64,000 bases of DNA from the NCBI GenBank assembly GCA_963727455.1, contig CAVSGG010000017.1, positions 128,001 through 192,000 on the forward strand. Direction: 5' to 3'. This document shows, one piece after another, positions 38,330-55,565 of this stretch (positions within the stretch are counted from its first letter, which is position 1; every line of letters begins with the position of its first letter). The position numbers and the translations under genes are program-made. This DNA is from Candidatus Krumholzibacteriota bacterium (lineage in GTDB: Bacteria > Krumholzibacteriota > Krumholzibacteriia > JAJRXK01). A model generated the notes under the pieces. It was given only the letters and a program-made list of their open reading frames with translations. It was not told where the DNA came from and did not search any database.

Positions 38330-39718
38330 GTGAAGCAGCTCGTCGCGTTCTTGTTCGTCCTGTCGGTTCTCGCCCCTCAGTTGGGGTGCAGCGGTCGCGA
38401 CCCCATGGACTTGGAGGTCTCCCGGGCCAAGATCGATCCCGTGGTCTTCGACGATGACTACAGCCCCGACGTCTACTTCCAGGCTTTTGCCCAGACAAAC
38501 GTGGTCGCGGTCCAGCTGGATTCCGTCTACGCCTACAACGGTTACGCGCCCGACGGCGCCCGCTCCCTCAAGATCAACATCGCGCCCGGCGGATCGGCGC
38601 TGGGATCCTACTCCGGAGGAGTCTTGACCTCGGTGGCCAGCCGCGATTTCCTCGACTACAACGCGCTGAGCTTCTGGGCGCGCGCCGATCGAGACATCTC
38701 GCTGGATTTGGCGGGCTTTGGCAATGACAACACCGGCACTTCGCTCTACGAAGCGAGCCGGTCGGGTATCCCGCTCACGCGAGACTGGCAGCACATCATC
38801 GTCCCCATACCCAACCCTTCCAAGCTCATCGCCGAACGCGGGCTCTTCACCTTCGCAGAAGGATTGGAGGAACAGTATCCGGACGGGTACGACATCTGGG
38901 TCGACGAGATCCGTTTCGTCAAGGTCGATAGCCTCACCGTCTTTCGTCCCACCCTACGCTCGGTGAATCGTCAGTACTTTGTGGGCTCCACCGTGAATCT
39001 GGACGGGGCCTCCACCGTCTTCCAGCTGGGCAACACCTTCCTGCCGGTCAATCACTCGCCTAACTACTTCGATTTCGAATCCTCCGATCCTTCTGTGGCC
39101 AAAGTGATCCGGGGCAGGGTCCAGGTGAGCGGCGTGGGAAAGGCGACGATCACCGCGACCTTGCAGGGCTATCCCGCCATCGGCAGCGTGTCGGTTGCCG
39201 GCTACGAGCCTCCTCGTGCGGCACCTCCCACGCCCACGCTTCCGGCTTCCGACGTGATTTCCTTGTGGAGCGACACCTATCCCAACGTCACGGTCGATAC
39301 CTGGAGGGCCGATTGGGGGGGCGTCACCACGCAGGTCGAGGACTACACGGTGGGCAATCGCCACATGAAATTGTATTCCTCGCTGAATTGGGTGGGCATC
39401 GATTTTCTGAACAAGAAGATCGATGCCAGCAGCATGACCCATCTGCACGTGGACGTCTATGCACCGGCTGGTACCAACTTCAAGCTCAAGGTGGTCTCGT
39501 TTCCCTCCCAGCTCACGCATTCGGTGGAAACGCAGGAGAAGATCTTCAACGCCACCTCCACGCCGGCGTTTCATCCCGGCTCGTGGTCCTCGTTGGAGAT
39601 TCCGCTGACGGATTTCCAGTTGCCTACCGATTGGGACTGGAGTCGCATAGGCGAGCTGGTACTCGCTTCGACAGACGCACAACTCGTGCTTGTGGACAAT
39701 CTCTACTGGCACAAATAA
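38330..39718 (+). CDS. Lipoprotein with carbohydrate-binding-like beta-sandwich domains and an Ig-like (Big_2) domain
   Basis: Lipobox LGC; DYNALSFWARA...WVDEIRF; FESSDPSVAKV..G.ATITAT; MTHLHVDVY...WSSLEIPLTDF...VDNLYW. Confidence 0.75.
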   Translation: MKQLVAFLFVLSVLAPQLGCSGRDPMDLEVSRAKIDPVVFDDDYSPDVYFQAFAQTNVVAVQLDSVYAYNGYAPDGARSLKINIAPGGSALGSYSGGVLTSVASRDFLDYNALSFWARADRDISLDLAGFGNDNTGTSLYEASRSGIPLTRDWQHIIVPIPNPSKLIAERGLFTFAEGLEEQYPDGYDIWVDEIRFVKVDSLTVFRPTLRSVNRQYFVGSTVNLDGASTVFQLGNTFLPVNHSPNYFDFESSDPSVAKVIRGRVQVSGVGKATITATLQGYPAIGSVSVAGYEPPRAAPPTPTLPASDVISLWSDTYPNVTVDTWRADWGGVTTQVEDYTVGNRHMKLYSSLNWVGIDFLNKKIDASSMTHLHVDVYAPAGTNFKLKVVSFPSQLTHSVETQEKIFNATSTPAFHPGSWSSLEIPLTDFQLPTDWDWSRIGELVLASTDAQLVLVDNLYWHK

Positions 39719-39761
39719 GATCAGCCTCGCTGAGCCAGCGCCTCTCACGAAGTTGGGCGGG

Positions 39762-41027
39762 ATGCAAAACCACAACCTGAATCGCAGGGGTCTGCGGCGT
39801 ACCGATGCTGACGGTCCGCGCCCCTTGGCCGATGCCGTCCTACGGCTCATCTGGCAGGAACGCCGGATCTCCCGCGCGGAGATCGCGCGGAACGCCAAGC
39901 TCTCCCGTTCTACCGTCTCGGAAATCGTCAATGAGATTCTTCCCATGGGACTCATCGCTGAAATCGGGGAGGGCCCATCCCGTGGCGGCCGACCGCCCAT
40001 CGTGCTGGAGTTCCGGGACGATGCCTGCGTCATTCTGGGGGTGGAGATGGGCGCGACCCACGTGGTGGTCACCCTCATCGATCTGCGTGGGAAGGTGCTG
40101 AGCTGGGAATCGCGTGAGCACCCCGTCCGCAGCGATCCCGCCGGAACCCGTAGACTCATCGCCGAGCTGTGCAAGGCCTGCCTCTTGGCCTCCGCGGTGG
40201 GAGATCGTCCCCTGGTGGGAATCGGAGTCGCGGTGCCATGTCCGGTTGACCCTTTCGGAAACCACCGTCTTTCCACCGTCGTGCTCCCCAAGTGGGAGGG
40301 CGAACTGGGACTCGAGGAACTCGCCAAACAGTACGAGGTCCCTCTGATGGTCGACAATGACGCCAACCTGGGGGCGCTGGCCGAGCACTGGTGGGGTGTG
40401 GGGCGTGGAGTGGACGACATCGCCTACATCAAGGTCGCGACCGGGATCGGTTCGGGTCACGTGGTTGGAGGCGAAATCTACCGGGGTGCCACGGGCGTGG
40501 CGGGGGAGATCGGTCACATTGCGATCGACCCGCAAGGAAAGCCCTGTATCTGTGGGCTGCGCGGGTGCTTGGTCACCCTGATCGGGGGGCAGGCTTTGCT
40601 GGAGCGGGCGGCGGAACTGCGCAGCGAGTACCCGCGGAGCACCCTGGCGAAAGGGGAACCCAGCGTGCGGGAGATCGAGGATGCAGCGCTGGCCGGCGAT
40701 CCTCTGGCCCTGCATGTCGCGCAGGAAGCGGCCAACTACTTGGGTCGAGCCGTGGCCAGTCTCTTGAATCTCATGAACCCCTCGCTCGTGATCGTGGGGG
40801 GAGATCTGGCCAGGCTGGGGGACCTGCTCATCCACCCCCTGCGCGATACGGTGGAGAAGAGAACCTTGGTCAGTTCGGTTGCAGCGGCTCAGATTCGCGC
40901 CAGTGAGCTGGGCTTTCGTTCCACCGCGATCGGCGCAGCGACCCTGGTTCTCAAGGCTGCCCTGGCCGACTCCCGGCTATTCCCGCGCGTCCCCGCTCCT
41001 AAATCGCCAGCTGCACATAGGTCCTGA
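39762..41027 (+). CDS. ROK family transcriptional repressor (XylR/NagC-like)
   Basis: HTH ISRAEIARNAKLSRSTVSEIV, SRGGRPP, DNDANLGALAE and GEIGH...CICGLRGCL. Confidence 0.95.
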   Translation: MQNHNLNRRGLRRTDADGPRPLADAVLRLIWQERRISRAEIARNAKLSRSTVSEIVNEILPMGLIAEIGEGPSRGGRPPIVLEFRDDACVILGVEMGATHVVVTLIDLRGKVLSWESREHPVRSDPAGTRRLIAELCKACLLASAVGDRPLVGIGVAVPCPVDPFGNHRLSTVVLPKWEGELGLEELAKQYEVPLMVDNDANLGALAEHWWGVGRGVDDIAYIKVATGIGSGHVVGGEIYRGATGVAGEIGHIAIDPQGKPCICGLRGCLVTLIGGQALLERAAELRSEYPRSTLAKGEPSVREIEDAALAGDPLALHVAQEAANYLGRAVASLLNLMNPSLVIVGGDLARLGDLLIHPLRDTVEKRTLVSSVAAAQIRASELGFRSTAIGAATLVLKAALADSRLFPRVPAPKSPAAHRS

Positions 41028-44000
41028 TCTCCCATTCGCGTCCCAGGGGCAGGCCCTCTGGATAGAGTGAGCCTTCGGCCGGTGCCGTCGCGCCCTCTGG
41101 TTGGTAGCGATTGGAGTAGCGATTCAGGGTACGGAAGGTGCCCTGAACTCCGATACGGGTCTGCGGAAGATCGAACCAGCGCGGCGTACCCAGAGTGAAC
41201 GAGACATCCGCCATCAGCTGCAACGGGAAGGTCAGGTTGTGGTCGTGGTGGTAGTCGTACGGTCCGTAGTCGTGGACCTTCACGAAGCCGGCCAGGGAGA
41301 TGGATGGCCAGACGATTCGACTGTCCACACCGACCCGGTGTACGAGACGTGGATTGTCTCCGTTGGGCTCGGCCGTCCCGTAGTAGAAGTGACTGATCAT
41401 GCGAACCCGCGAACTCAGGCGATGGATCGTCCTGCCGTGCAGCTCCCAAAGGTCGCGCGCGGGCGTGGCTCCGGGGAACGCTAGAATGGTGTTGTCGGCG
41501 GAAATGAACAGACCGGCGTCCGCCGTGGTGTGATGACGCTTGAGGCTGAAGCCCAGGCTCGCCGCGAACTTGGCGTCCTCGCGAAGGTCGCTGTCCCAAG
41601 CCCACATCCAGGTCGCGGGAGTGGGGTCGTAGGTGATCATCAACTCACCGCCGGTGGTCTCGCGGTTGGCGCGAACTGCGAAGGGGTCGTCCAGGACGTT
41701 GCGGGGACGTCCCGTGGTGCCGGCCAGATCGCTCGAGTTCGGCATCGGACCCACGATGGGTTTTTGCCAGAGAAAGTTTGGTCCGATCTGCCAGTTGCCC
41801 ATCGTGACCGCTACCCCCGAGAGCGCGTTGACCTGGTTGCCCATTCCGCTATCTCTGAGATCCCAACCGGTGAAGGTGGGAATAGCGGTCGGGCCTGCTT
41901 CGGCCACGAGGCCCATGTAGGCACCCTCACCGTACCAGTGCCAGCGTCCGTGCTCCCAGGTGAGCTTGCCCTTGAAACCGAAAGTGTCCTCGGGCTTGAT
42001 CTTGTCCTGGCGAACGTCTTCCGGTGCTACGGGGCCGCCAGCGTCGACGATTTTCTCGTCCACGAGCTGGAAGGTCTCCCCCACGCGCGGTTGTCCCGAC
42101 CAGAGGAGGCCGCCCTCGAAACCGAAGGGTCCCAGGCCGGTCTGCATTTGCAGCGAGGCTTTCCGCGTAGAACGAATCGGAATCGCGATCGAGCTGGTCG
42201 CCTGCGTACGCTGGGTGAAATCCTCCTGGTACATTCCGGTCCATTCGATTCCGGCCAGCTTGCGGTCGTACTTGAGGAAGACGGCGGGGTTGGCTCCCCA
42301 CCACAACTGCGGTCCCATAGCCAGCTTGAAGCCGTTGAAGAACTTCTTGCCCGCGATCTCGAAGCCGATCGGCGCTTCTCCATTGTAGATGTCCAGGTTC
42401 TCTCCGTAGAAGGCGTCGCGATACAGTCCGAAGAAATCGCCCTCGTACTGCCAGTGCAGATGGCCGGTGCGATAGAAGCTGTCGAGCTTGAACCAGCGAT
42501 CATCCCAGCTGAGATCGGCCTGATAGACCTTTACGCGCTCGAGCGACTGCACCTCGACCGGATTGCCGTTCTCGTCGAGGAAGGTCTGAGGGCGTCCGCG
42601 GTTTTCGTAGAAGATCTCGTCGATGGGATTCTGGGGAACGTTGCCCAGAACGTTGAGCGAGAGCCTGCCGATGACGCCTTCGTTGGGCTTGGCTTCGATC
42701 TCGGCGAAGAACGACTCCCCGTGGTCGAAGCCCAGGAAGGAGGGATAGGAATCCTGTGGATTCGTACTTTTTGGGGTCGAGATGTTCTTTCCGCCCGTGC
42801 TGTAGCTCTCGAATTCCATCCGCAAGCCCGACACGCGCACTTTCTTGAGCAGATCCGCCTCGTAACTCGCGGCATCTCCGCGGGCCTTCAAGACTTCCGC
42901 CATCGGTTCGATCGCGCGGAAGTGCTTGCGGATCGTCTGCAAGTCGGTGGTCGAGGCGTAGGGGTCGAGCACGAACGCGTCGCGGAGAGCGTAGTACGCC
43001 GCGCGCGGATAGACCTCGTAGAAGCCCTGCGCGTCGGGGAATCCCTTCGCGGTGATGCCCCACCACTCCTCGTTCATGTTGTTGTCGCCCTCACGGTAGT
43101 CGGTCGGGTAACCGCCGTTGGGCCAGGAGGCGTTGGTGTCATGGATGTCCAGCCGGCTGTCCTGACCGAACTTCCACCAACCGTCGCTCCACTGGAAGAT
43201 CAAGCCTCCGATCGCGTTGTTGGCCTGACCCTTTCCCGCCGACTGCTCGTAGATCTCTTCCCACTGTCCGAGCAGGTAGTAGGCCTGGGAGGCCTGGTCT
43301 TCCTTCATGGTGATCGCGTTGAAGGCATCCGCTCCGAATTCCGTGAAGAGGGCGGGGATACCGAGCTTGTCGTGAACTACCTGGAAGAAGTCGCGCGCGG
43401 AAACACCGCGATACACGTTCGAACCGAAGACATCGAGGCCCGGGCATTCTTGGGCGATGATATCGATGTACTGCACGTCACCGTTCGCGATCGCCACCGG
43501 ATGATCGGGGTCACGCTTCTTGATGTCCTGGATGATCTCTCCGAAGAGGGAGTAGAGAAATCGCGCGCGGGCCGCATTCTGTTCCCCTTTGGGCAGGGCC
43601 TCGATTTCGAACGAGGACCAGGATAGACCGTAATTGTTCTCGTTTCCCAAGAGCCACATGAGAACGCCCGGAGTTCCCTTGTAACGATCGACCTCCGCCG
43701 CCAACCGTTCCTTGAGGAACGCCCGCACCTTGGGGTCGCTGTAATCGGTTGTGGGATACCAGACACCGTCGATGGTCACTCCATAGCGGCCGACCGTATC
43801 GTTGAGGATGGTGTAGATCCCGTAGTTCCTCCACATGTACTCGATCCAACGCGGCTGCATGCCCGGCGCCTGTCGGATGGTGTTGATCCCCATGGACTTG
43901 AGCAGGGGCATTTCGCGGGCGAGGACCGCCACGATGAAATCGTCCGGCTGCCCCCAGAAGTCGTAGCTGTAGTTCTGCCCGATGGGTAGGTAGCCCCAGT

Positions 44001-44202
44001 TCATCCCGAAGACCATGAAGTCCTGGCCGTCCACCTGGAGCCGGCTGCCCTCCGCGTCGTTCACGACCGTGATGGAAGGCAACTCGGTGCCGCTCGCCCG
44101 CGCGCTGCCGGCGGCAAGCAGTAGGGGCAGAACCAGGATCATCCTCCAACTCACCCGGAGCAGACGGAGTCGTAAGGAGTTGCTACTTGGGATCGGTTTC
44201 AC
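40999..44202 (-). CDS. Clan GH-A glycoside hydrolase (GH2-TIM/GH158-like) fused to a ~600-aa probable outer-membrane beta-barrel
   Basis: Signal peptide; GINTIR, LLGNENNY (acid/base) and FTEFGAD (nucleophile). C-terminal half rich in amphipathic beta-strands, ending WEIRTYVQLAI. GTG start after GAGGGG. Confidence 0.75.
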   Translation of the reverse strand: MKPIPSSNSLRLRLLRVSWRMILVLPLLLAAGSARASGTELPSITVVNDAEGSRLQVDGQDFMVFGMNWGYLPIGQNYSYDFWGQPDDFIVAVLAREMPLLKSMGINTIRQAPGMQPRWIEYMWRNYGIYTILNDTVGRYGVTIDGVWYPTTDYSDPKVRAFLKERLAAEVDRYKGTPGVLMWLLGNENNYGLSWSSFEIEALPKGEQNAARARFLYSLFGEIIQDIKKRDPDHPVAIANGDVQYIDIIAQECPGLDVFGSNVYRGVSARDFFQVVHDKLGIPALFTEFGADAFNAITMKEDQASQAYYLLGQWEEIYEQSAGKGQANNAIGGLIFQWSDGWWKFGQDSRLDIHDTNASWPNGGYPTDYREGDNNMNEEWWGITAKGFPDAQGFYEVYPRAAYYALRDAFVLDPYASTTDLQTIRKHFRAIEPMAEVLKARGDAASYEADLLKKVRVSGLRMEFESYSTGGKNISTPKSTNPQDSYPSFLGFDHGESFFAEIEAKPNEGVIGRLSLNVLGNVPQNPIDEIFYENRGRPQTFLDENGNPVEVQSLERVKVYQADLSWDDRWFKLDSFYRTGHLHWQYEGDFFGLYRDAFYGENLDIYNGEAPIGFEIAGKKFFNGFKLAMGPQLWWGANPAVFLKYDRKLAGIEWTGMYQEDFTQRTQATSSIAIPIRSTRKASLQMQTGLGPFGFEGGLLWSGQPRVGETFQLVDEKIVDAGGPVAPEDVRQDKIKPEDTFGFKGKLTWEHGRWHWYGEGAYMGLVAEAGPTAIPTFTGWDLRDSGMGNQVNALSGVAVTMGNWQIGPNFLWQKPIVGPMPNSSDLAGTTGRPRNVLDDPFAVRANRETTGGELMITYDPTPATWMWAWDSDLREDAKFAASLGFSLKRHHTTADAGLFISADNTILAFPGATPARDLWELHGRTIHRLSSRVRMISHFYYGTAEPNGDNPRLVHRVGVDSRIVWPSISLAGFVKVHDYGPYDYHHDHNLTFPLQLMADVSFTLGTPRWFDLPQTRIGVQGTFRTLNRYSNRYQPEGATAPAEGSLYPEGLPLGREWEIRTYVQLAI

Positions 44203-45613
44203 GGGATTCCCCTCGAGTCTGGGTGGAAGTGGAGGCCGCGGCGAGTTTCGCCGGGATCTCGACGACAGCATTCGCGGAAACGACCTCTTTGTAGTAGTGG
44301 GCGCTGTCTTTGGGCAGTCGCTGTTGGGAGTCGAAGTCGACGGAGAAGATGCCGAACTTCTTCTTGTAGCCAAAGCCCCACTCGAAATTGTCCAGCAGCG
44401 ACCACAAGAAATACCCTTTCAGTGGCACGCCGTCCTCGATGGCGCGGTGAGCTTCTGAGAGGTGCGCGCGCAGGTATTCGATTCGCTTGGTGTCGGCAAT
44501 GCGATCCAGGGAATCGACGGAGTAGTCGTAGGCGGCGCCGTTCTCGGTGATGTAGATCTCGCGCGGTCCGTAATCCCGGTGGACACGAAGCAAGCTCTCG
44601 TAGAGCCCTTGAGGGTAGACCTCCCAGCCCATGTCGGTCAGCTCATGAGGTGGGGCCACCTTCAGGTCCTTGGGACGCCCATCCGCTCCGCCCTTCATTA
44701 CGACTCGGCTGTAGTAGTTCAGTCCCAGAAAATCCAGGGGGGCGGCGATGGCCAGCATGTCGCCATCCTGCACAAAGGGCAGCTTGGGACCTTTCAGGTG
44801 ACCCGCGCGAATCCTGTCCTCCACCGCATCGGGGGGATAGGAGCCCAGGAACAGGGGGTCGAGGTACCAACGGTGGAAAAAGCCGTCGAACCAGCGCGAC
44901 GCGTCGCGGTCCCTCGCGCTGGAACTGGCCGGATGCGCCGGGCAATGGATGATGACGATGCCCAGTTTCACGCGCGGCGACTCGTCACGCATGACTTTAC
45001 AGGCCCAGCCGTGGGAGAGCAGTAGATGGTGGGCCACACGGAGCGCCTCGGAAGGATCGGTGTGTCCGGGCGCGTGATGCCCCTCCTCGTGTCCCAGAGT
45101 CGTCACGCACCACGGTTCGTTGTGGGTCACCCAGCGATCGACGCGATCCCCCAGCCGGCGGACCACTGCCTGGCTGTATTCGACGAAAGCCTTGGCCGTG
45201 TCGCGCTTGCTCCAGCCACCGCGTTCCTGGAGCGCCTGCGGCAGGTCCCAGTGATAGAGGGTGGGGAAGGGCTCGATGCCGGCTTGCAGCAACGCGTCCA
45301 CCAGGGCGTCGTAGAAGTCGAGTCCGGAGCCATTGAGCTGCCCGTAACCGCGCGGAAAAACTCGCGGCCAGGAAATGGAGAAACGGTACGCCCCGAGGCC
45401 AAGCCACTTCATCAGCGCCAGGTCTTCCCGCCAGCGGTGGTAATGGTCACAGGCGATATCGGGGGTGGAGGCGTCCTCGATGGCCCCCGGCCGGGCCGCA
45501 AAGCGATCCCAGATGGAATCGCCGCGGCCACCTTCGTGCCGGCCGCCCTCGATCTGCTGGGCGGAGGTAGCGACCCCCCATACGAAGTCCTTCGGGAACT
45601 CCAAATTGGCCAT
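44183..45613 (-). CDS. GH1 beta-glucosidase (cytoplasmic)
   Basis: FPKDFVWGVATSAQQIEG, YRFSISWPR, TLYHWDLP, THNEP, YITENG and WSLLDNFEW. Confidence 0.97.
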   Translation of the reverse strand: MANLEFPKDFVWGVATSAQQIEGGRHEGGRGDSIWDRFAARPGAIEDASTPDIACDHYHRWREDLALMKWLGLGAYRFSISWPRVFPRGYGQLNGSGLDFYDALVDALLQAGIEPFPTLYHWDLPQALQERGGWSKRDTAKAFVEYSQAVVRRLGDRVDRWVTHNEPWCVTTLGHEEGHHAPGHTDPSEALRVAHHLLLSHGWACKVMRDESPRVKLGIVIIHCPAHPASSSARDRDASRWFDGFFHRWYLDPLFLGSYPPDAVEDRIRAGHLKGPKLPFVQDGDMLAIAAPLDFLGLNYYSRVVMKGGADGRPKDLKVAPPHELTDMGWEVYPQGLYESLLRVHRDYGPREIYITENGAAYDYSVDSLDRIADTKRIEYLRAHLSEAHRAIEDGVPLKGYFLWSLLDNFEWGFGYKKKFGIFSVDFDSQQRLPKDSAHYYKEVVSANAVVEIPAKLAAASTSTQTRGESRETDPK

Positions 45614-45696: not shown

Positions 45697-45744
45697 CTTT
45701 GTTCGGACTCCGAACATAGTGTATGATAGCAAGGGCGGTGTCAA
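45697..45744 (-). promoter_or_regulatory. Sigma70-like promoter for GH1 operon with palindromic operator (site 2)
   Basis: Minus-strand TTGACA (45744-45739)-N17-CACTAT; CTTTGTTCGGACTCCGAACATAG at 45697-45719. Confidence 0.75.
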
Positions 45745-45787: not shown

Positions 45788-46765
45788 ATGCGAAATCTGG
45801 TCATCGCCGTCCTGGCCGTCACGGCGCTTCTCTACCCACTCGCGACCCTCGCGCAGCCTTTGGCTTCGTATACACAGAATTTCGAGAGCCTGGTCCAGAG
45901 CGACGCCAACGCTCTGACCAACGACGGTTGGCTGGTTTACGGAAACGTCTATGACACCGACGGTACCACCTATCTGTACGGTTACGGTTCCTACCCGGCG
46001 CCCAACAACGGCGCTGCATTCTGTCAGATCGCCATTGGCGAAGGTGGATTGGAGCAGGGCGCACAGCAGCTCGTCGTGTTCAGCGACTACGAGAACACCG
46101 ATCACGCTTTGGGCTACTACATCGAGTCCAACGTCTTTCAGGAGCAGCCGATCGGCAGCGATGATGTCGGGAACACTTGGGTCTTCGAGTTCGACGCGAA
46201 GCTCGGCAATTTGGAACTCCTTTCTACCGCCTTGGCCTTCATCAAGACCATCGATCCGAACAACGGCTATGCGACCACCAACTTCATCACTTCGGACATG
46301 ACGAGCATTCCCTCGACATGGAATCACTACTCGCTGTCCATCACGATCGACGCGGGCCTGGTCGGCCAGTTGTGTCAGTTCGGTTTCTCGAACACCGCAA
46401 CCCTGTACCAGGGTTCGGGGGTCTTCTACGACAACATCAGCTTCCATCTGCAGGACGTGACGGGGACCACTCCAGTTCGTGCCTCAGTCGATGCGATCCT
46501 GCACCAAAACTACCCGAATCCCTTCAATCCCAGCACGAGCATCGAGTTCACCCTGAACAAGTCGCAGAGCGTCGAGCTTTCAGTCTTCGACATCGCGGGC
46601 CGTCGCGTGACCACTCTGCTGAAGGGCACCCTGGGCGAAGGTGATCATACGGTGCGTTGGAACGGACGGAGCGAGAATGGCGCTTCTGTGGCTTCAGGAC
46701 GCTACAGCTACGTCTTGCGGACGCAGAGCGGAGAGCTGTCGGGAAACATGATTCTCTTGAAGTAG
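45788..46765 (+). CDS. Secreted beta-sandwich protein with C-terminal FlgD-Ig/T9SS-CTD-like domain
   Basis: Signal peptide; C-terminal LHQNYPNPFNPSTSIEF...VFDIAGRRVTTL...WNGR...ASGRY. Core is paralogous to 52069-52800. Confidence 0.85.
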   Translation: MRNLVIAVLAVTALLYPLATLAQPLASYTQNFESLVQSDANALTNDGWLVYGNVYDTDGTTYLYGYGSYPAPNNGAAFCQIAIGEGGLEQGAQQLVVFSDYENTDHALGYYIESNVFQEQPIGSDDVGNTWVFEFDAKLGNLELLSTALAFIKTIDPNNGYATTNFITSDMTSIPSTWNHYSLSITIDAGLVGQLCQFGFSNTATLYQGSGVFYDNISFHLQDVTGTTPVRASVDAILHQNYPNPFNPSTSIEFTLNKSQSVELSVFDIAGRRVTTLLKGTLGEGDHTVRWNGRSENGASVASGRYSYVLRTQSGELSGNMILLK

Positions 46766-46784
46766 AAACCCCTTGCCGCGAGAG

Positions 46785-49700
46785 ATGGCGATGAAGACCA
46801 AGTCCAATCCCACGCCGGAAGTGCGCCCTGGGGAGATCCTCGGGGAATTCCCCAAAGGAGAATTCGTTCGTTTGGACGGGGAGATGTACTACCGGATCGC
46901 GGCGTACGACCTTCTCGAGCCCTTCCTGATGAGCGTGCCGAGCAACACGGACCTCTGGATGTTCGTTGCCTCGGGTGGTGGGTTAACAGCCGGTCGCGTC
47001 GACGCCGACGGAAGTCTGTTTCCCTACCGAACGGTGGACAAACTGCACGATGCCCATTATCACACGGGTCCTCTCAGCTCGATACAGCTCGAGGGAGCCG
47101 AAGGAAGGGTCCTACGCTGGGATCCGTTCGCGAGCGATGCGCTGCACAGTGCCGCGATCGAGAGGAACCTCTACAAAAATCCCTTCGGCAATCGGCTGGT
47201 GTTCGAAGAGATCCATCACGAACTCGGTCTTGCGTTTCGCTATCGCTGGGCGGCTTGTGATGAATTCGGTTGGGTGCGGACGGTCACTCTCGAGAACCGC
47301 TCCGAACGATTGGCGCGGATCACAGTGCTGGATGGACTCAGAAACATCCTTCCCTACGGTGCTCCACTCTCACTCTATCAGCAGGCGAGCAACTTGATTG
47401 ACGCCTACAAGCGATCCGAGGTAGATCGAGAGACCGGACTCGGCATTTTCTCGCTCACCTCCTGTATTACCGACCGGGCAGAAGCTCTGGAGATGCTCAA
47501 GGCGAACACCGTCTGGTGTTGCGGTCTGCAGAGATTCAAGGTCCATCTTTCGCTGGATGTGGCGAAGGACTTCCATGCACGGAAGGTATTGGGCGAAGAC
47601 AAAGTGCTGAGCGGTGCCCGCGGCAACTATCTGGTAAGCGCGCCCTTGGAAGTGAAACCGGGGGAGGTCGCTCGCTGGCACATCGTGGGCGATACCGGTT
47701 CGGATCAGGTTCGAATCGCCGCTCTCCGGCGGAAACTCCTCGAGGAAGATGATCTCAGCGCAGTCGTGGAAGAGAAGCTTCGCGAGGCGGAGAGAGATTT
47801 GCGACGTAACGTGGGAAGCGCGGACGGCCTGCAGCTAACCGCGCACCCGGAAAACTGGGTGCATCATTTCACGAATGTTCTGTTCAACAACATGCGCGGA
47901 GGAGTGTTTTTCAACAACTACTCCGTTCCTATCGGGGACTTCCGGGATTTTCTGCAGGTACGAAATCGTGAGGTTGCGAAGCGGCGCGCGTCGACCCTCG
48001 AGTCGTTGTCGAATTTCTCCGAGATCGAGGAAATTCAAGCCGTGGCACGGGCCTCGCACGATCGCAACTTCGAACGCCTGAGCTACGAGTATCTGCCTCT
48101 CTACTTCGGACGCCGTCACGGTGATCCCAGCCGTCCCTGGAATAGCTTCTCCATTCGAACCAAGAACGAAGCGGGCGTGAAGATTCTGAATTACCAGGGC
48201 AACTGGCGCGACATCTTCCAGAATTGGGAAGCACTAGGCGCGTCCTTTCCGGGATTCCTTCCCAGCATGGTAGCCAAGTTCGTCAATGCCTCCACGGTGG
48301 ACGGGTTCAACCCCTACCGCATCACGCGCGACGGAGTGGACTGGGAAATCGCGGAAGCAGATGACCCCTGGAGCAACATCGGCTATTGGGGCGATCATCA
48401 GATCATCTACCTCTTGAAGCTTCTGGAGAACCTGGATCGCCATCAACCGGAAGCGCTGGGCAAACTGCTAGGTCAGGAGATCTTCAGTTACACCGAAGTT
48501 CCCTACCGAATCCGTCCCTACGAGCAAATTCTGAAGAATCCGCGTCAGACCATCGACTTCGATCATGCCCTCGCGGCGCGCATCGAGCAGAGAGTCAAGT
48601 GCCTGGGAACCGACGGGAAACTTCTGTCAGCGGCCGATGGCTCCACCTACCATGCGAATCTCTTCGAGAAGCTGTTGGTGCCGGCCCTCTCCAAGCTGTC
48701 GAATTTCATCCTCGATGCCGGCATCTGGATGAACACTCAGCGCCCTGAATGGAACGATGCGAACAACGTGCTGGGGGGCGGGGGCGTCTCGGTGGTCACC
48801 CTTTGTCACCTCAGGCGCTACCTGGCGTTCATCGGGGAGCGATTCGAGCGATCGACGCAGGCCGAATTCCCCGTCGCGGGCGAGATCATCGATTGGTTGG
48901 ACGGCATCGAAGTCACTCTTCGCGAGGAGCACGAGCGACTCTCGGGCGAAGAATTGGGCGCGGTCGATCGCAAGCGCATGATGGACGCTCTGGGGAGCAT
49001 CTTTTCGCGATACCGCGATCAGGTCTACGCGAACGGATTCTCGAAAAAGCGCAGCCTAGAGGCGTCCAGGGCCGCCGCACTCTGTCGGCTCGCTCTCGCG
49101 CTTATCGATCGGGCGATCGACGCCAACCGCCGCGAGGACGGGCTCTACCACACCTACAATCTGCTGGAGATCGACGAGGTCCAGGGAACGGCCGAAGTGA
49201 TCCACTTACAGGTCATGCTGGAAGGCCAGGTCGCCGCGCTCAGTTCGGGGCACCTGTCTCCCGAAGAGGCGCTGGAGATTCTGCAGCGGCTCTTCAGCAG
49301 TTCGCTCTACCAGGCACAGCAACGCAGTTTCCTGCTCTATCCCGATCGGGAACTCCCGGGCTTCATGGCCCGGAACGTCATTCCGAGCGGGCGGGTGCAA
49401 TCCATCCCACTCCTCGTCGATCTCCTCGCGCGGGGCAATCGTTCGATCGTGGCGCGTGACGCGGAAGGAATGTTCCGTTTCCACGGGGAGTTCAAGTGCG
49501 CGCACGACTTGGCCCTTGCGCTGGAAGTTCTCGAGGAGCAGGAGGAATGGCAGAGCGGGGTCCGCCGGGACCGCGAGCAGGTTCTCGATCTCTTCGAAGA
49601 AGTCTTTGCCCACAAATCTTATACCGGGCGCTCCGGAGTCATGTTCGGCTACGAGGGCCTGGGCTGCATCTACTGGCACATGGTGGCCAAGCTGTTGCTG

Positions 49701-50291
49701 GCCGTGCAGGAGAACTTCCTGCGGGCGGAGGAGATCGGTGCATCGGCGTCGGTGCGCGAGGACCTGGCCAGCATGTATTTCAGGGTGCGTGCTGGGATCG
49801 GCTACGAGAAGTCCGTCGAGGAATACGGCGCTTTTCCCACTGATCCCTACTCTCATACCCCGGCCAGCGGAGGAGCGAAACAGCCGGGCATGACCGGTCA
49901 GGTCAAAGAGGAGATTCTCACGAGGCGCGGCGAGCTGGGCGTGAAGGTCCAGGAGGGCTGCCTGCGTTTTCATCCCCAACTTCTGAGCCAGCAAGAGCTT
50001 CTCGAGCAGCCCGAGGTTTTCCATTATTTCGACCTGGCCGGAGAAGAGCAGACCCTCGCCTTGTCCGAGGGCAGTCTGGTATTCACCTTGTGTCAGGTAC
50101 CGGTGGTCTTCCGGCGCGCGGCGGCGAAGCCGTGCATGCTGCTCGAGTTTGTCGATGGCAACTCGAGACTGGTGCCCGGCGATACCCTTCCGCCCGAGTT
50201 GAGCAGCGAGCTCTTCTCGCGCAGCGGCCGCATCCAGAAGATCACGGTGGACCTTGCAATAGGCAGCTTCCGCTCGAACAACCGGAGATGA
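46785..50291 (+). CDS. GH149-like beta-1,3-glucan phosphorylase
   Basis: About 1170 aa with no signal peptide; RRHGDPSRPWN, GNWRDIFQNWE, WMNTQRPEWNDANN, YEGLGCIYWHM and PTDPYSHTP...QPGMTGQVKE. Flanked by GH16/GH17. Confidence 0.82.
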   Translation: MAMKTKSNPTPEVRPGEILGEFPKGEFVRLDGEMYYRIAAYDLLEPFLMSVPSNTDLWMFVASGGGLTAGRVDADGSLFPYRTVDKLHDAHYHTGPLSSIQLEGAEGRVLRWDPFASDALHSAAIERNLYKNPFGNRLVFEEIHHELGLAFRYRWAACDEFGWVRTVTLENRSERLARITVLDGLRNILPYGAPLSLYQQASNLIDAYKRSEVDRETGLGIFSLTSCITDRAEALEMLKANTVWCCGLQRFKVHLSLDVAKDFHARKVLGEDKVLSGARGNYLVSAPLEVKPGEVARWHIVGDTGSDQVRIAALRRKLLEEDDLSAVVEEKLREAERDLRRNVGSADGLQLTAHPENWVHHFTNVLFNNMRGGVFFNNYSVPIGDFRDFLQVRNREVAKRRASTLESLSNFSEIEEIQAVARASHDRNFERLSYEYLPLYFGRRHGDPSRPWNSFSIRTKNEAGVKILNYQGNWRDIFQNWEALGASFPGFLPSMVAKFVNASTVDGFNPYRITRDGVDWEIAEADDPWSNIGYWGDHQIIYLLKLLENLDRHQPEALGKLLGQEIFSYTEVPYRIRPYEQILKNPRQTIDFDHALAARIEQRVKCLGTDGKLLSAADGSTYHANLFEKLLVPALSKLSNFILDAGIWMNTQRPEWNDANNVLGGGGVSVVTLCHLRRYLAFIGERFERSTQAEFPVAGEIIDWLDGIEVTLREEHERLSGEELGAVDRKRMMDALGSIFSRYRDQVYANGFSKKRSLEASRAAALCRLALALIDRAIDANRREDGLYHTYNLLEIDEVQGTAEVIHLQVMLEGQVAALSSGHLSPEEALEILQRLFSSSLYQAQQRSFLLYPDRELPGFMARNVIPSGRVQSIPLLVDLLARGNRSIVARDAEGMFRFHGEFKCAHDLALALEVLEEQEEWQSGVRRDREQVLDLFEEVFAHKSYTGRSGVMFGYEGLGCIYWHMVAKLLLAVQENFLRAEEIGASASVREDLASMYFRVRAGIGYEKSVEEYGAFPTDPYSHTPASGGAKQPGMTGQVKEEILTRRGELGVKVQEGCLRFHPQLLSQQELLEQPEVFHYFDLAGEEQTLALSEGSLVFTLCQVPVVFRRAAAKPCMLLEFVDGNSRLVPGDTLPPELSSELFSRSGRIQKITVDLAIGSFRSNNRR

Positions 50292-51907
50292 CGATGCACC
50301 TGAAAAAGCTCTGCTACGCGCTGGTGATTCTGATTTGTCTGGCCACGGTTCCCTTCGGCCAGGCGCGGGCACAGTGCATTCTTGCCAATCCCAGCTTCGA
50401 GCTGTCCGGATCGGGGGGGCATACCTTTGGCGGCTGGGAGCAGTTCGGCGCGGTAGGTTCCGTGACCGTCGCATCGCACGGTGCCAAAGCTGCGCGCGTC
50501 TCGGGTCCGAACTACGGAGGTTGGGACGTGTCCGCCTATTGGCAAAGCCAGGATTGCTCGGTGGGCGAGCAGTGGAAGGTCACGGGGCACGTCCTGGTGC
50601 CCTCCAGCAAGCCTCTGGTGGGAGATTGCATTGCACTGGTGAACGTCGAGTGGCGCGATTCGGGGGGCAACCTCATCGACTATGATTCCTTCACCGTGGC
50701 CGATGCCGGCTCTCCGACCGATACCTACCTGGATTTCGATGTGACGAGCGGTCCGGCGCCTTTGGGCACGGTCTCCGCCCGTCTGTTGCTGGGGGTTCTG
50801 CAGAGCCCCAGCGATCCGAGCCCTGACGTCTACTACGACCAGGTCACCTTCTTTTCGACTTCCTATCCGACGATCGACGATGTGCAGTGGAACGACTTTC
50901 CCGGCGGGAAAACCGTGAGCTTCGGCGGGTACACCTGGCGCGTCAAAGGGCCCGGATTCTACGGTCCCGGAGCCAATCTCTTCTGCGACTCGTCGGACTG
51001 CGTTTGGGTGGATGCGAGCGACCAACTTCATATCACGCTCAAGAACCGCAGCGGTTCCTGGTACAGCACCGAGGTCGTGAATGAACAGGCATTGGGCTAC
51101 GGGGACTACATTCTGACTACGGTGGGCCGTCTGGACCTCATCGATCCGCAGGCCGTGCTAGGGATCTTTTTGTGGCAGTACGGTCCCTGCTGGGATGAGG
51201 GCTATCTGTGGTGGAATCCCTTCAACGAAATCGACATCGAATACAGCCGCTGGCAGAACCCCTCAGCCGACATCGCCCAGTTCGTCGCGCAGCCTTTCGA
51301 CTATCCCGGCAACATTACGCGCTTCGACGCTAGCTTCACGGCAAATGAGGTCACCAGTCATGCGATGCGCTGGTTGCCCGACCGCGTAGAGTACCGCGTA
51401 TGGCGCGGAGGCCCACAGGACGAATCTCCGGCGAACCTTATCGCCTCGTGGACCTACACGGGGCCGCACATTCCCCGTCCGGAGCAGCCCCGCATGCACC
51501 TGAACCTGTGGAGAATCGACGGCACGCCGGCCTCGAACCAGGAAGTGATCTTCCAGGATTTCACTTTCATTCCCGAGGGGGGCGCCACCGCGGTGGAGGA
51601 GGGGACCTCCCGTTCGATTCCCTCGCACGCGGCAGCTCGTCTCTATCCCGCGGTTCCCAATCCTTTCAACCCCCAAACGACCCTGCGCTTCGAGCTGGCA
51701 AAGGACGGGCAGGTACAGCTGCAGGTCTTCGACCGCAGCGGCCGCCATGTGCGGACTCTGGAAAATCGCTACCTCACGGCGGGTGCGCACTGGGCCGTGT
51801 GGAACGGGAAGGACGATCAGGGCAGGGCGGTGGCTTCAGGGGTGTACTTCCTGCGCTTGAGCGGTGAGGGCTTTCAGGAGAGCCAGAGGGTGGCGCTGGT
51901 GAAGTAG
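50288..51907 (+). CDS. Secreted GH16-like endo-glucanase with N-terminal CBM-like domain and C-terminal FlgD-Ig-like domain
   Basis: Signal peptide; LANPSFE...YYDQVTF (CBM4-like); catalytic EIDIE; tail PNPFNPQTTLRF...WNGKD..G..VASGVYF. Confidence 0.85.
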   Translation: MTMHLKKLCYALVILICLATVPFGQARAQCILANPSFELSGSGGHTFGGWEQFGAVGSVTVASHGAKAARVSGPNYGGWDVSAYWQSQDCSVGEQWKVTGHVLVPSSKPLVGDCIALVNVEWRDSGGNLIDYDSFTVADAGSPTDTYLDFDVTSGPAPLGTVSARLLLGVLQSPSDPSPDVYYDQVTFFSTSYPTIDDVQWNDFPGGKTVSFGGYTWRVKGPGFYGPGANLFCDSSDCVWVDASDQLHITLKNRSGSWYSTEVVNEQALGYGDYILTTVGRLDLIDPQAVLGIFLWQYGPCWDEGYLWWNPFNEIDIEYSRWQNPSADIAQFVAQPFDYPGNITRFDASFTANEVTSHAMRWLPDRVEYRVWRGGPQDESPANLIASWTYTGPHIPRPEQPRMHLNLWRIDGTPASNQEVIFQDFTFIPEGGATAVEEGTSRSIPSHAAARLYPAVPNPFNPQTTLRFELAKDGQVQLQVFDRSGRHVRTLENRYLTAGAHWAVWNGKDDQGRAVASGVYFLRLSGEGFQESQRVALVK

Positions 51908-52914: not shown

Positions 52915-52937
52915 CTATGTTCGGTGACCGAATCAAG
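52915..52937. promoter_or_regulatory. Palindromic operator (site 3)
   Basis: CTATGTTCGGTGACCGAATCAAG, overlapping a possible minus-strand TTGATT-N18-TAGACT promoter. Confidence 0.65.
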
Positions 52938-52988: not shown

Positions 52989-53036
52989 TTGACCGCTTCG
53001 CCGGCGAGGGGTACTTTGTTCGTATGTCGAACAAAG
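52989..53036 (+). promoter_or_regulatory. Sigma70-like promoter with perfect palindromic operator (site 4)
   Basis: TTGACC(52989)-N17-TACTTT; CTTTGTTCG-TATGT-CGAACAAAG at 53014-53036. Confidence 0.8.
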
Positions 53037-53092: not shown

Positions 53093-54565
53093 ATGAACCC
53101 AGCCGTGCACGCCAAGACAGCTCCGGAGGACCGGGTTCCTTTCCTGCAGCGACTGGCCTACGGCTCAGGCGCCTTCGTCAACAACCTGCTGGCCGCGGCG
53201 AGCGGCGGCATGATGATCGTGCTGAATCTGGGCTTGGGGATGAATCCCGGCCTGGTCGGCCTGCTAGGGGCTCTGCCTCGTCTCACCGACGCCTTTACCG
53301 ATCCCCTCATGGGATACATTTCGGACAACACCCACACCCGCTGGGGACGGCGGCGGCCCTATATTTTCAGCGGCGCCATCGCGGCGGGGGTGATCTTCGC
53401 TCTCCTATGGCAGTTGCCGCGGGGACAGAGCGAGACCTTCTACTTCGTCTTTTTCCTCGTCGGTTCGATTCTCTTCTACGCCGGCTACACGGTCTTCGCT
53501 ACCCCCTGGGTCGCTCTGGGCTACGAACTCACGCCGGACTACAATGAGCGCACGCGCCTCATGGGAACCCAGAATTTCATCGGTCAGCTCGCGTACGTCG
53601 TCTCGCCCTGGTTTCTGTGGATCATGAACTCCGGCAGGTTCTTCCCGGATCAGGTCTCTGGAGCGGCCGGACTGGCCATCATCGTCGCCGTGGTTGCCAT
53701 CGGCTTGGGAATTCTGCCGGCGATCTTTCTGCGGGAACGCATGAAGCAGGTGGCGGCGGAGGAAATGGACCTCAAGTCGGAGCCCGGGGCCAGCGGTCTC
53801 CTGCACAACATCAAGGAATTTTTGAGAGGTTCGAAGGTCACGCTTTCCAACGGGCCCTTCCTCAAGTTGTGTATGGCTACCTTTCTCGTCTTCAACGGTT
53901 TCATGCTCATCGCCTCCTTTCAGTATTACGTGATCATCTACTACGTCTGCGGTGGTGACCAGACCGCGGGCGCCAAGTACGCCGGCCTGGCCGGTACGGT
54001 GGGCGCGGTGTGCACTTTCGCCGTCGTGGCATTCGTCACCTGGCTCGGCACGCGGATCGGAAAGCGGCACACCTTCTTCCTTGCGATCGGACTCTCCATC
54101 ATCGGTTATGGTCTGAAGTGGGTTTGCTACAACCCCCAGATGCCTCTTCTGGTGGTTCTCCCCGCACCCCTGATGGCCTTCGGCTTGGGCGGGCTGTTCA
54201 CGCTGGTTCCCTCCATGATCGCCGACGTGGTCGACACCGATGAACTCACGACCCACGAACGACGCGAAGGGATGTTTGGCTCCATTTTCTGGTGGATGGT
54301 GAAACTGGGCATGGCCGCGGCGCTGGCGGGCGGCGGCTATCTCCTGAACGCCACCGGTTTCAACGTCGATCTGGGGGGAAATCAAGCCGCGCGGTCCATC
54401 ATCCTCTTGCGGCTGTGCGACGCGGGAATTCCCATGCTGACTTCGGCCCTGGCAATCTGGGCTGTGTCACGCTTCCCCATCTCCGAGGAGAAGGCCCTTC
54501 AAGTGCGCCAGGAGTTGGAACGTCGCCGAGGACGCGCGCCGGTGGTCGAGGCTCTGAAGGGATAG
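53093..54565 (+). CDS. MFS glycoside-pentoside-hexuronide (GPH) sugar:cation symporter
   Basis: DAFTDPLMGYISDNTHTRWGRRRPY, ELTPDYNERT and SMIADVVD.DE...RREG; about 12 TM. Confidence 0.93.
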   Translation: MNPAVHAKTAPEDRVPFLQRLAYGSGAFVNNLLAAASGGMMIVLNLGLGMNPGLVGLLGALPRLTDAFTDPLMGYISDNTHTRWGRRRPYIFSGAIAAGVIFALLWQLPRGQSETFYFVFFLVGSILFYAGYTVFATPWVALGYELTPDYNERTRLMGTQNFIGQLAYVVSPWFLWIMNSGRFFPDQVSGAAGLAIIVAVVAIGLGILPAIFLRERMKQVAAEEMDLKSEPGASGLLHNIKEFLRGSKVTLSNGPFLKLCMATFLVFNGFMLIASFQYYVIIYYVCGGDQTAGAKYAGLAGTVGAVCTFAVVAFVTWLGTRIGKRHTFFLAIGLSIIGYGLKWVCYNPQMPLLVVLPAPLMAFGLGGLFTLVPSMIADVVDTDELTTHERREGMFGSIFWWMVKLGMAAALAGGGYLLNATGFNVDLGGNQAARSIILLRLCDAGIPMLTSALAIWAVSRFPISEEKALQVRQELERRRGRAPVVEALKG

Positions 54566-54569
54566 GATC

Positions 54570-55565
54570 ATGCAGTTGCGCGGCGCAGTGCTTATCCTGC
54601 TCTTAGTCCTCTTCGCTGCTGGTCCCGTGGAGGCTACCCGCGGCGGAGCCGTGACCGGTTCACTTTCCCCAGGAGGAGAACCGTTTTCCATGCGCCCACT
54701 TCAGCTGAATCTACAGGGCATCTGGATCGGCAACGCGATCTGCTATAGCCCCTATCGCGACGGGCAGAACCCCGACGGCGCTTCCCCCAGCTCCGCGCAG
54801 CTTCGCGAGGATTTGCAGCTGATGCTGCCTCACTGGAATCTGCTGCGCACCTACGGGTCCTCGGGTTACGTCGAAGAGCTTCTCTCAATCATCCGAGAGG
54901 AAGAATTGCCCATGCGAGTCATGCTGGGGGTTTGGCTCACGCCGCGGGATTCAACGGCGAACGTGCGAGAGATCGACGAGTCGATTCGCCTGGCCAATGC
55001 GTTTCCTACGATTGTCATCGCGGTATGCGTGGGGAACGAAACGCGCGTCGCTTGGTCGGACCACCGTCTACCGGTGGAAGTTCTCGTTGATGCGATTCGT
55101 CGCGTGCGGGGAAGGGTCGAGGTCCCGGTGACCACCGCCGACGATTTCAAGTACTGGAATCAGGAGGAGAGTCGGAAAGTCGCGGGCGAGATCGATTTCC
55201 TCACCATGCACGCGCACCCTCTGTGGAATGGCATTCAACTTGAGGATGCTCTTCCGTGGCTGGAGCGCCAAGTGGACGCGGTGCAGGCGATACATCCCGA
55301 GAGCGTGATCGTGCTCGGGGAGACGGGGTGGGCCACCGACCACTCCGAAGAGGGGGAGCAGGGTGAACTGATCAAGGGCCAAACGGGGGCACGCCAACAG
55401 AAGCAGTTCTATGAAGCCACTCGTGACTGGGCCAAGCGCAAGACGATCCCGACCTTCATCTTCGAGGCCTTCGACGAGAACTGGAAGGGGGGCGATGATC
55501 CCCAGGAGGTAGAGAAGCATTGGGGTCTCTTCCGCGCGGATCGCACGCCAAAGAGCGAATTCTAG
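54570..55565 (+). CDS. GH17 beta-1,3-glucanase/glucosidase
   Basis: Signal peptide; ICYSPYR, LRTY, VGNE, LGETGW and FEAFDENWK...EKHWGLF. Confidence 0.9.
   Translation: MQLRGAVLILLLVLFAAGPVEATRGGAVTGSLSPGGEPFSMRPLQLNLQGIWIGNAICYSPYRDGQNPDGASPSSAQLREDLQLMLPHWNLLRTYGSSGYVEELLSIIREEELPMRVMLGVWLTPRDSTANVREIDESIRLANAFPTIVIAVCVGNETRVAWSDHRLPVEVLVDAIRRVRGRVEVPVTTADDFKYWNQEESRKVAGEIDFLTMHAHPLWNGIQLEDALPWLERQVDAVQAIHPESVIVLGETGWATDHSEEGEQGELIKGQTGARQQKQFYEATRDWAKRKTIPTFIFEAFDENWKGGDDPQEVEKHWGLFRADRTPKSEF

Follow-up and report, generated by a model that had tools for sequence, protein, structure and literature searches.

A single gene in the DNA described here appears to encode an outer-membrane channel for sugars that carries its own enzyme. 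The DNA is a stretch of 64,000 nucleotides from Candidatus Krumholzibacteriota bacterium (assembly GCA_963727455.1, contig CAVSGG010000017.1), the whole of which is called the window below. The product of the gene, referred to here as the fusion protein, combines a signal peptide, a catalytic domain resembling glycoside hydrolase (GH) family 158, a helical linker and a β-barrel in one chain. Judging from the structure models, it would represent something new: a channel in the outer membrane, specific for its substrate and built from a new family of barrels, to which an enzyme is covalently linked. The barrel is probably the sugar entry gate of laminarin loci that have no SusC/SusD transporter, and from the sequences we infer that the substrate of the fusion protein is β-1,3-glucan and that sugar is transported through the barrel. 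The parts of the gene are listed here, with residues of the fusion protein numbered throughout as in its public gene call, P0002.

40999..44202, minus strand: whole gene, encoding the signal peptide, GH158-like glucanase, helical linker and 24-strand barrel
44095..44202, minus strand: Sec-type signal peptide, read from the sequence, with an Arg-rich n-region, the h-region ILVLPLLLAAG and the cleavage motif ARA/SG
42943..44085, minus strand: clan GH-A (β/α)8 catalytic domain, GH158-like, a probable endo-β-1,3-glucanase (Pfam, PDB sequence and fold matches)
43639-43641, minus strand: codon of Glu168 in the GNENN motif, the predicted acid/base by alignment to Glu143 of GH158(Pro)
43339-43341, minus strand: codon of Glu268 in the TEFG motif, the predicted nucleophile by alignment to Glu229 of GH158(Pro)
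42847..42942, minus strand: helical linker that joins the TIM barrel to strand 1, made of two helices, of which the second has about 20 residues (from the DSSP string of the full-length model)
41002..42846, minus strand: outer-membrane β-barrel of about 24 strands, of a family without a Pfam or NCBIfam model (AlphaFold2, Foldseek and VIA-align)
41566..41625, minus strand: most conserved barrel element, DPTPATWMWAWDSDLREDAK, barrel residues 407-426, mean column identity 0.66
41002..41034, minus strand: last strand, with the β-signal-like motif WEIRTYVQLAI

The full-length AlphaFold model (predicted local distance difference test, pLDDT, 73; predicted template modelling score, pTM, 0.53) already displays a series of long hairpins. 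Since the TIM barrel of the catalytic domain took up most matches in fold searches with the whole protein, the 615 C-terminal residues were folded alone with AlphaFold2, using a diverse alignment of 51 sequences (22-85% identity). The resulting model has a pLDDT of 91.0 and a pTM of 0.87, and all five models fall at pLDDT 88.8-91.0. Every Foldseek match in the PDB, among the matches listed, is an outer-membrane barrel (PfeA, BtuB, FepA, MOMP, OmpF, AlgE), with E values down to 1.5e-12 and TM-scores of 0.2-0.4. Membrane barrels likewise account for 50 of 50 VIA-align rows, headed by AlgE (Z 14.3). Identity to the solved structural matches is 4-14%, and none is close. The models and matches support a membrane barrel of about 24 strands. 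A preliminary description of this DNA had taken about 600 C-terminal residues for a probable barrel and had named soluble β-sandwiches as the fold that would speak against it. The region of 615 residues bears this reading out; because the barrel model is confident and its matches are exclusively membrane barrels, a soluble sandwich is not what was found.

The strand number was obtained in two ways. The DSSP string of the barrel model contains 24 long strands, many of them with one hydrophobic face, and hydrophobic faces alternate in the long hairpins. In VIA-align, 18-strand porins align with the barrel up to residue ~476, that is, strand 18, and 22-strand TonB-dependent transporters up to ~550, strand 22; the 24-strand ushers FimD and PapC (Z 12.5 and 11.9) are the only higher-scoring rows covering residues 2-615. 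The stretches of alternating hydrophobic and polar residues that had first suggested a barrel are real elements of the confident model: FGFKGKLTWEHGRWHWYGEGAYMG forms the hairpin of strands 12-13, strand 16 consists of GGELMITYD and strand 22 of QLMADVSFTLG, and the β-signal-like WEIRTYVQLAI is both the last strand and the C-terminus of the protein, its terminal Ile being atypical.

The barrel of the fusion protein matches no family in Pfam or NCBIfam, and a Pfam scan of 51 of 51 aligned members of the barrel family placed no family on the barrel. An ESM Atlas search returned unnamed "hypothetical protein" clusters; an identity with DUF6029, suggested there by a lead (0.94), was dropped, as no DUF6029 appeared in the scan of the 51 members. 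When the 615 C-terminal residues were searched against 1.84 billion cluster representatives, 450 matches were obtained, most of them fused (1020-1100 amino acids) and some of 570-615 amino acids.

The reading frame of the gene is 40999..44373 on the minus strand. The preliminary description had given an open reading frame (ORF) at 40999..44202; the frame is real and yields 1067 amino acids from GTG 44202, but it lies on the minus strand, the plus-strand translation of 40999..44202 being rich in stops. The public gene call, 100% identical, begins at ATG 44142 and has 1047 amino acids. A start at GTG 44202 is plausible because a GAGGGG box lies 6 nucleotides 5' of it and because it adds the Arg-rich n-region to the signal peptide. 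A lipobox Cys is absent from the signal peptide as read from the sequence, and homologues of the fusion protein have signal peptides too. Long antisense frames opposite the gene, for example 41530-43626 on the plus strand (698 amino acids), are the usual artefact of high-GC DNA.

An outer-membrane location of the fusion protein would agree with several features outside the fold. The C-terminal residue is I, L or M in 106 of 120 close homologues; among 54 divergent homologues of at least 560 amino acids, 24 end in F, Y or W and 21 in I, L, V or M, and the rest look truncated. Omp85/BamA is found above the cut-off in the host genome (3.46 Mb, 88.85% complete), where the barrel family is present in a single copy. 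The named carriers of the fusion all belong to diderm lineages.

The C-terminus of known bacterial outer-membrane barrels is periplasmic, and this was used to anchor the strand topology. The tight turns share one side with both barrel termini; on this periplasmic side the turns amount to 58 residues, mostly as turns of 2-6 residues, and the loops on the opposite side to 285 residues, with most of the insertions. Alignment occupancy is 0.86 on the long-loop side versus 0.96 on the short-turn side. In the stand-alone members P0204, P0223 and P0243, which have signal peptides of their own, strand 1 begins a few residues past the cleavage site. With 24 strands and a periplasmic C-terminus, the N-terminus of strand 1 and the linker to the enzyme would therefore be periplasmic, and the glucanase domain is most likely located at the periplasmic mouth of the barrel, a point on which the preliminary description took no side. 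A predicted complex of the barrel (433-1047) with the GH domain (22-400) reached a best score of 0.23, against a mark of 0.32, and had no contacts.

The topology assigns the most conserved barrel element to a 20-residue periplasmic turn between strands 16 and 17. Barrel residues D407, W417, E423 and A425 within it are nearly invariant to invariant in fused and stand-alone members alike. Highly conserved aromatic-rich loops occur at 126-159, LWWGANP, 312-337, 363-396 and GPYDYHHDHNL, and such conservation would be more in keeping with a specific constriction than with an inert anchor.

The catalytic domain is probably an endo-β-1,3-glucanase, as its relatives and motifs suggest. Pfam assigns it weakly to the GH2_C TIM barrel (E=1.1e-5), and among PDB sequences it comes closest to GH158(Pro), 9ORO (phmmer, E 2.3e-6, residues 133-271). 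In this alignment, LLGNENN lies over LGNES and TEFG over TEFG; an offset of +8 brings the aligned 9ORO glutamates to Glu143 and Glu229, which the available text on GH158(Pro) gives as its catalytic residues (PMC13195107). In Foldseek searches with the full-length model, GH158, GH157 and BuGH158 rank first, with the GH158 structure 9p26 at the top (E 1.7e-12), and VIA-align superposes the model on 9oro_A with Z 23.1 and a root-mean-square deviation (rmsd) of 3.4 over 278 residues. The TIM barrel of clan A and the two catalytic glutamate motifs, both noticed in the preliminary description, are thus upheld: the closest solved relatives are GH158 and GH157 laminarinases, both glutamates align with those of GH158(Pro), and GNENN and TEFG do not vary in any of the 49 homologues aligned. 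Many other families of clan GH-A reach similar VIA-align scores (GH5, Z 24.4; GH2, Z 23.9), and a family profile finds 9oro at E 0.0013 and 6pal at E 0.0055, both weaker than GH2 β-galactosidases. As the profile similarity to GH158 falls below that to the GH2 galactosidases, we call the domain GH158-like, which leaves membership of GH158 unproven.

The Ig-like domain of solved GH158 enzymes is absent from the full-length model; two linker helices (residues 401-432) stand in its place and lead into the barrel. The Ig-like domain is a trait of both solved members and not a criterion of CAZy for GH158. At residues 318-365 (~43048-43191, minus strand), the TIM barrel is interrupted by an invariant insertion, WWK...HDT...NNMNEEWWG, some 50 residues long. 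No part of the enzyme domain is better conserved, yet AlphaFold gives the insertion a pLDDT below 50, and it could be a lid or docking element.

The neighbouring genes in the window point to β-1,3-glucan use. Those of the locus are the following.

39690..41027, plus strand: ROK-family regulator with a helix-turn-helix, NagC/Mlc-like, convergent with the fusion gene
44183..45613, minus strand: GH1 β-glucosidase without a signal peptide, directly upstream of the fusion gene
45700..45716: exact palindrome TGTTCG-N5-CGAACA, between the GH1-fusion operon and the operon of the type IX secretion system (T9SS) protein and GH149
45788-46765, plus strand: T9SS-tailed protein, divergent from the GH1-fusion operon
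46773..50291, plus strand: GH149 β-1,3-glucan phosphorylase (NCBIfam NF058639, 1493 bits)
50288-51907, plus strand: second T9SS-tailed secreted protein, its ATG overlapping the GH149 stop (ATGA)
52918-52934: copy of the palindrome with 2 mismatches, upstream of the MFS and GH17 genes
53017..53033: second exact copy of TGTTCG-N5-CGAACA, upstream of the MFS and GH17 genes
53093..54565, plus strand: MFS_2 sugar:cation symporter, an inner-membrane importer
54570..55565, plus strand: GH17 with a signal peptide, a periplasmic β-1,3-glucan enzyme

The GH1 gene and the fusion gene are probably one operon, since they share a strand and the GH1 stop overlaps the GTG start of the fusion gene by 20 nucleotides. 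MFS_2 and GH17 are separate genes, 4 nucleotides apart. The exact palindrome occurs in 2 copies, compared with 0 in 100 shuffles, and is probably the operator of the ROK regulator at 39690-41027. No TonB-dependent receptor was found in the window; the five matches in the genome all lie elsewhere. Neither SusD nor a GH16 above the cut-off was found in the host genome.

PDB sequence matches of both T9SS proteins are confined to the FlgD-like sorting domains, and the same is true of the second protein (50288-51907) in Pfam. The latter has an N-terminal stretch resembling a carbohydrate-binding module (CBM) and an EIDIE motif, which we take to be reminiscent of GH16; a weak Atlas lead to GH16/β-glucanase (0.89-0.90, residues 262-512 of the 605-residue ORF) is insufficient for naming it. 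Because the genome has no GH16 above the cut-off, this protein may be its surface endo-laminarinase. The first T9SS protein (45788-46765), which could be a surface glycan-binding protein, is kept beside the fusion in the Krumholzibacteria-type loci L001-L008, L011, L012 and L014.

Relatives of the fusion protein are numerous, far beyond what chance would give. Scoring of 8000 candidates yielded 5438 clusters of proteins (90% identity) that match it at E<=0.001, the best 120 being mostly full-length (~1060 amino acids), and a pattern scan with one genome per species confirmed at least 597 species genomes. Counts of related loci refer to the best 80 of these at least 597 relatives, which include Bacteroidota (23/80), Gemmatimonadota-type lineages (22/80), Krumholzibacteria, Ignavibacteria-type lineages and Myxococcota/delta (5/80 each), Eisenbacteria (4/80), and Rhodothermales, Calditrichota, Fibrobacteraceae, Delongbacteria and a "proteobacterium" (1/80 each). 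Cultured carriers among the Bacteroidota include Flavobacterium terrisoli PT-3 (L071), Sediminicola luteus (L069) and Flavilitoribacter nigricans DSM 23189 (L045). Two variant architectures were seen: P0127 (1351 amino acids) carries a tandem pair of GH domains ahead of the barrel, and P0269 (1218 amino acids) has an N-terminal CBM4/9, then the GH domain and the barrel.

The surroundings of these relatives resemble the window locus. Among the 44 related loci that span 18 kb or more, tblastn with the window proteins (E<=1e-10, at least 40% coverage) recovered MFS_2 in 27, GH149 and GH17 in 20 each, ROK in 18 and GH1 in 9; in 40 of these loci, one or more of GH1, GH149, MFS and GH17 are present. 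Pfam was run on neighbouring ORFs within 10 kb in 23 loci: 74 ORFs from seven loci (a subset of 153 ORFs), 85 ORFs of at least 200 amino acids from nine Bacteroidota loci, and 59 ORFs of at least 230 amino acids from seven metagenome loci. None of the 218 ORFs matched TonB_dep_Rec, Plug, CarboxypepD_reg or SusD; the ORFs were chosen greedily by length, so that small genes may escape, but genes of SusC or SusD size would not.

In 12 of 12 Bacteroidota loci, an uncharacterised protein of 460-1400 amino acids comes directly after the fusion, and GH16 comes next; GH149, GH17, GH30, GH3 and MFS lie further downstream, or upstream in two loci, and a predicted Y_Y_Y/Reg_prop regulator precedes the fusion in 10 of 12. 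By this gene order, the fusion occupies the position of SusC. The earlier suggestion that it replaces SusC in the locus therefore fits the context, given that the window locus and the 23 related loci have no genes for TonB-dependent transporters, SusC or SusD and that the fusion stands in the SusC slot.

The uncharacterised gene itself (for example, L071:13059-15008, L066:13116-15104, L029:13148-15082, L055:13136-15064 and L024:13071-15056) has no Pfam match or, at most, Big-like or CIA30 hits. It stands in the usual slot of SusD or a surface glycan-binding protein and also occurs in several loci of other phyla; the Gemmatimonadota locus L033 has GH3 there, and the window has no such gene. A relationship between the ~650-residue protein downstream of the fusion in the Flavobacterium locus L071 and the T9SS protein of the window was ruled out. 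Beside the fusion, some loci also encode free proteins of ~600 amino acids that share the weak GH2_C-type TIM-barrel signature (L129:12320-14101, L139:12346-14169, L142:12343-14139, L151:14106-15911, L062:18669-20408), which may be soluble GH158-like paralogues in another compartment.

Homologues that consist of the barrel alone were sought with an alignment of stand-alone members, and a metagenome scan returned 80 loci. Complete barrel-only frames of ~585-620 amino acids, with signal peptides and upstream stops, were found in L082, L083, L086, L087, L095, L098, L100-L105, L107, L114 and L116. Pfam scans of six barrel-only loci found an Opp-type ABC solute-binding protein in five, with Opp-type permeases and ATPases scanned along in three of those five, as well as LacI in four, GH16 in four, glucokinase in two and GH1 in one; tblastn adds a GH1 in L082. 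GH1 or glucokinase is present in three of the loci. The sixth locus, L100, has a GH16 next to the barrel, together with genes of efflux type (OEP, ABC exporter, HlyD). The barrel keeps its association with β-glucan use in the absence of a fused enzyme, and since the barrel-only homologues stay in β-glucan loci, this suggests that the barrel works as a channel by itself and is not a mere anchor.

The mechanism that we propose combines these elements, and we consider its chances of being right and of being wrong about balanced. Sec would export the fusion protein, and the β-barrel assembly machinery (BAM) would insert the C-terminal 615 residues in the outer membrane as a barrel of ~24 strands. 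This barrel would be a passive, TonB-independent, substrate-specific channel for β-1,3-gluco-oligosaccharides or laminarin chains. The GH158-like retaining endo-β-1,3-glucanase would stay tethered by the helical linker at the periplasmic mouth, where it would act as a sink by cutting incoming chains to small oligosaccharides, so that the gradient stays inward. The products would feed the periplasmic GH17, the MFS importer, and the cytoplasmic GH149 phosphorylase and GH1, the whole gene set forming one ROK-controlled regulon in which the fusion protein does the job of SusC/SusD in classical loci. There is also a bolder and unlikely version, a ratchet driven by hydrolysis, in which an intact laminarin chain threads the barrel and is cut, on emerging, by a processive GH158-type enzyme fixed at the periplasmic exit, so that scission of the chain, rather than the proton-motive force, makes uptake directional.

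Several observations weigh against a periplasmic β-1,3-glucanase tethered to an outer-membrane channel. The full-length model is only moderate, the terminal residue is Ile and not the classical aromatic, and the catalytic domain resembles GH158 only weakly in sequence (E 2e-6 across 139 residues), to roughly the same degree as GH2, for which reason the β-1,3 specificity of the catalytic domain rests largely on genomic context. Others concern the side of the membrane: a linker helix of ~20 residues that crosses the pore in the manner of an autotransporter may be compatible with the topology, BuGH158 of Bacteroides is a surface enzyme, and the CBM4/9 of P0269 is more typical of extracellular enzymes. 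We regard it as doubtful, yet worth taking seriously, that the same enzyme-channel fusion has its GH domain on the cell surface, either with the linker helix through the pore or with the domain exported via its own barrel, so that the enzyme would cut laminarin outside and pass the products directly into its own channel. In the model, the ~20-residue helix stands directly before strand 1, as a helix does in type Va autotransporters; endo-glucanases act best on polymer outside; one relative has the N-terminal CBM4/9; and the genome, which has no GH16 above the cut-off, would have no surface endo-enzyme on any other arrangement, except if the T9SS protein at 50288-51907 should act as one. However, we know of no barrel of ~24 strands that exports an N-terminal passenger, and the large barrels LptD, the ushers, BcsC and PgaA have periplasmic N-terminal domains. 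A single helix would not fill the lumen of 24 strands, surface display in the same locus is already served by the T9SS, and the barrel-only homologues fold, and presumably function, without a passenger.

The remaining alternatives deny the barrel a role in glucan uptake. That it serves as a membrane anchor only, with sugars entering by other porins or by TonB-dependent transporters encoded elsewhere, is quite improbable: the five TonB-dependent receptor matches outside the window would allow it, but 24 strands and 285 residues of conserved aromatic-rich loops exceed the needs of an anchor, enzyme-free homologues occur in β-glucan loci with GH16 as a neighbour and, in five of the six examined, with ABC importers, and no TonB-dependent transporter lies within 10 kb in the 23 loci. 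In exopolysaccharide systems, an outer-membrane barrel works alongside a hydrolase in the periplasm, and the fusion protein might correspondingly export or remodel the cell's own β-1,3-glucan, as in the hydrolase-porin pairs for cellulose, alginate and poly-N-acetylglucosamine (PNAG), with no part in nutrient uptake. We think this very unlikely. The best VIA-align match is indeed the alginate exporter AlgE (Z 14.3), and PMT_2 and GT87-like transferases are encoded 7-12 kb away; yet AlgE matches over only 303 residues (rmsd 6.7, 7% identity), the operon has no glucan synthase, and across phyla the neighbours are catabolic or import genes (GH149, GH1, MFS, ABC importers, and ROK, LacI and GntR regulators). 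Least credible of all is that the C-terminal region consists of soluble β-rich modules or that the barrel is an AlphaFold artefact. The low TM-scores to solved barrels (0.35-0.40) speak for it, but they stand against the high pLDDT of all five models, listed matches that are exclusively membrane barrels, long hairpins with alternating hydrophobic faces, a signal peptide together with a β-signal, and the restriction of the family to diderms.

Laminarin is among the most abundant marine glycans. Its uptake is usually credited to SusC/SusD or other TonB-dependent transporters, and utilization loci are often predicted from the genes of these transporters. If the barrel is the entry gate, a large share of β-glucan utilization loci would have an unrecognised, energy-independent uptake route, surveys based on SusCD would miss the fusion loci, and a new family of outer-membrane barrels, fused and stand-alone, would gain a function. 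For the engineering of oligosaccharide uptake, an enzyme and channel in one covalent unit would have an appeal of their own. The ratchet, if true, would add a third principle of outer-membrane glycan uptake to general and specific porins and to SusCD/TonB transporters, in hundreds of species of Gemmatimonadota, Bacteroidota, Krumholzibacteriota, Ignavibacteriota, Myxococcota and others.

In the text of the open-access literature searched, neither the fusion protein nor the barrel family was found to be described; supplements, such as that of 10.1101/2024.06.04.597336, could show the gene without comment. GH158 occurs in laminarin loci with GH16, GH17, GH30 and GH149, according to the available part of one study (10.64898/2026.01.10.698779), and the accessible text of the literature listing GH158 in such loci mentions no barrel. 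The fusion protein shares with GH158 (BuGH158, 6PAL; GH158(Pro), 9ORO) the clan GH-A TIM barrel and the aligned NE acid/base and TEFG nucleophile. It differs in that identity is ~16-23%, with significant similarity over 139 residues only, in that it has the extra invariant insertion of ~50 residues (NNMNEEWWG), and in that two helices and the 615-residue barrel replace the Ig-like C-terminal domain described in the accessible text on GH158(Pro) (PMC13195107).

Among outer-membrane proteins, the fusion protein shares with SusC/SusD its slot in the locus and, presumably, the job of glycan entry, and 22-strand TonB-dependent transporters superpose on the first 22 strands of its barrel. In contrast to these TonB-dependent proteins, it has no plug, no TonB box and no Pfam match to TonB_dep_Rec, Plug or CarboxypepD_reg, nor an NCBIfam match of this kind (E<=0.01); SusC has 22 strands against ~24, and the N-terminus of the fusion protein is an enzyme, not a plug. 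Because of the missing plug and TonB box and the enzyme at the N-terminus, the barrel is presumably a passive channel. The ushers FimD and PapC have 24 strands, and 357-362 of their residues align, but identity is 7-9%, function is unrelated, and the fusion protein lacks the usher plug, the usher N- and C-terminal domains and a Pfam Usher match. Type Va autotransporters have 12 strands instead of ~24 (AIDA-I, Z 8.4), and the fusion protein has no Pfam Autotransporter match. Transport and catalysis are also joined in Formosa, the closest published parallel that was found, where a laminarin enzyme is covalently attached to a transporter in a GH17-MFS fusion that, in the part of the paper available, its authors present as a new kind of transporter-CAZyme fusion (Unfried et al. 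2018, PMC6246565); that transporter is α-helical and in the inner membrane, whereas an outer-membrane β-barrel is predicted here. Sugar porins (LamB, ScrY, ChiP, CymA) resemble the barrel in being outer-membrane channels encoded with matching catabolic and import genes and in their conserved aromatic-rich loops, and VIA-align gives Z 10.3-11.6 to ChiP, LamB and ScrY. They show no sequence relation to it, and have 14-18 strands instead of ~24, whereas the fusion protein covalently bears a glycosidase; it has no Pfam match to the LamB family, and LamB, a trimer of 18-strand barrels, aligns only with residues 3-474 of the barrel (Z 11.0). On these comparisons, the fusion protein would act like a sugar porin and, by its position in the locus, like SusC, as a member of neither family.

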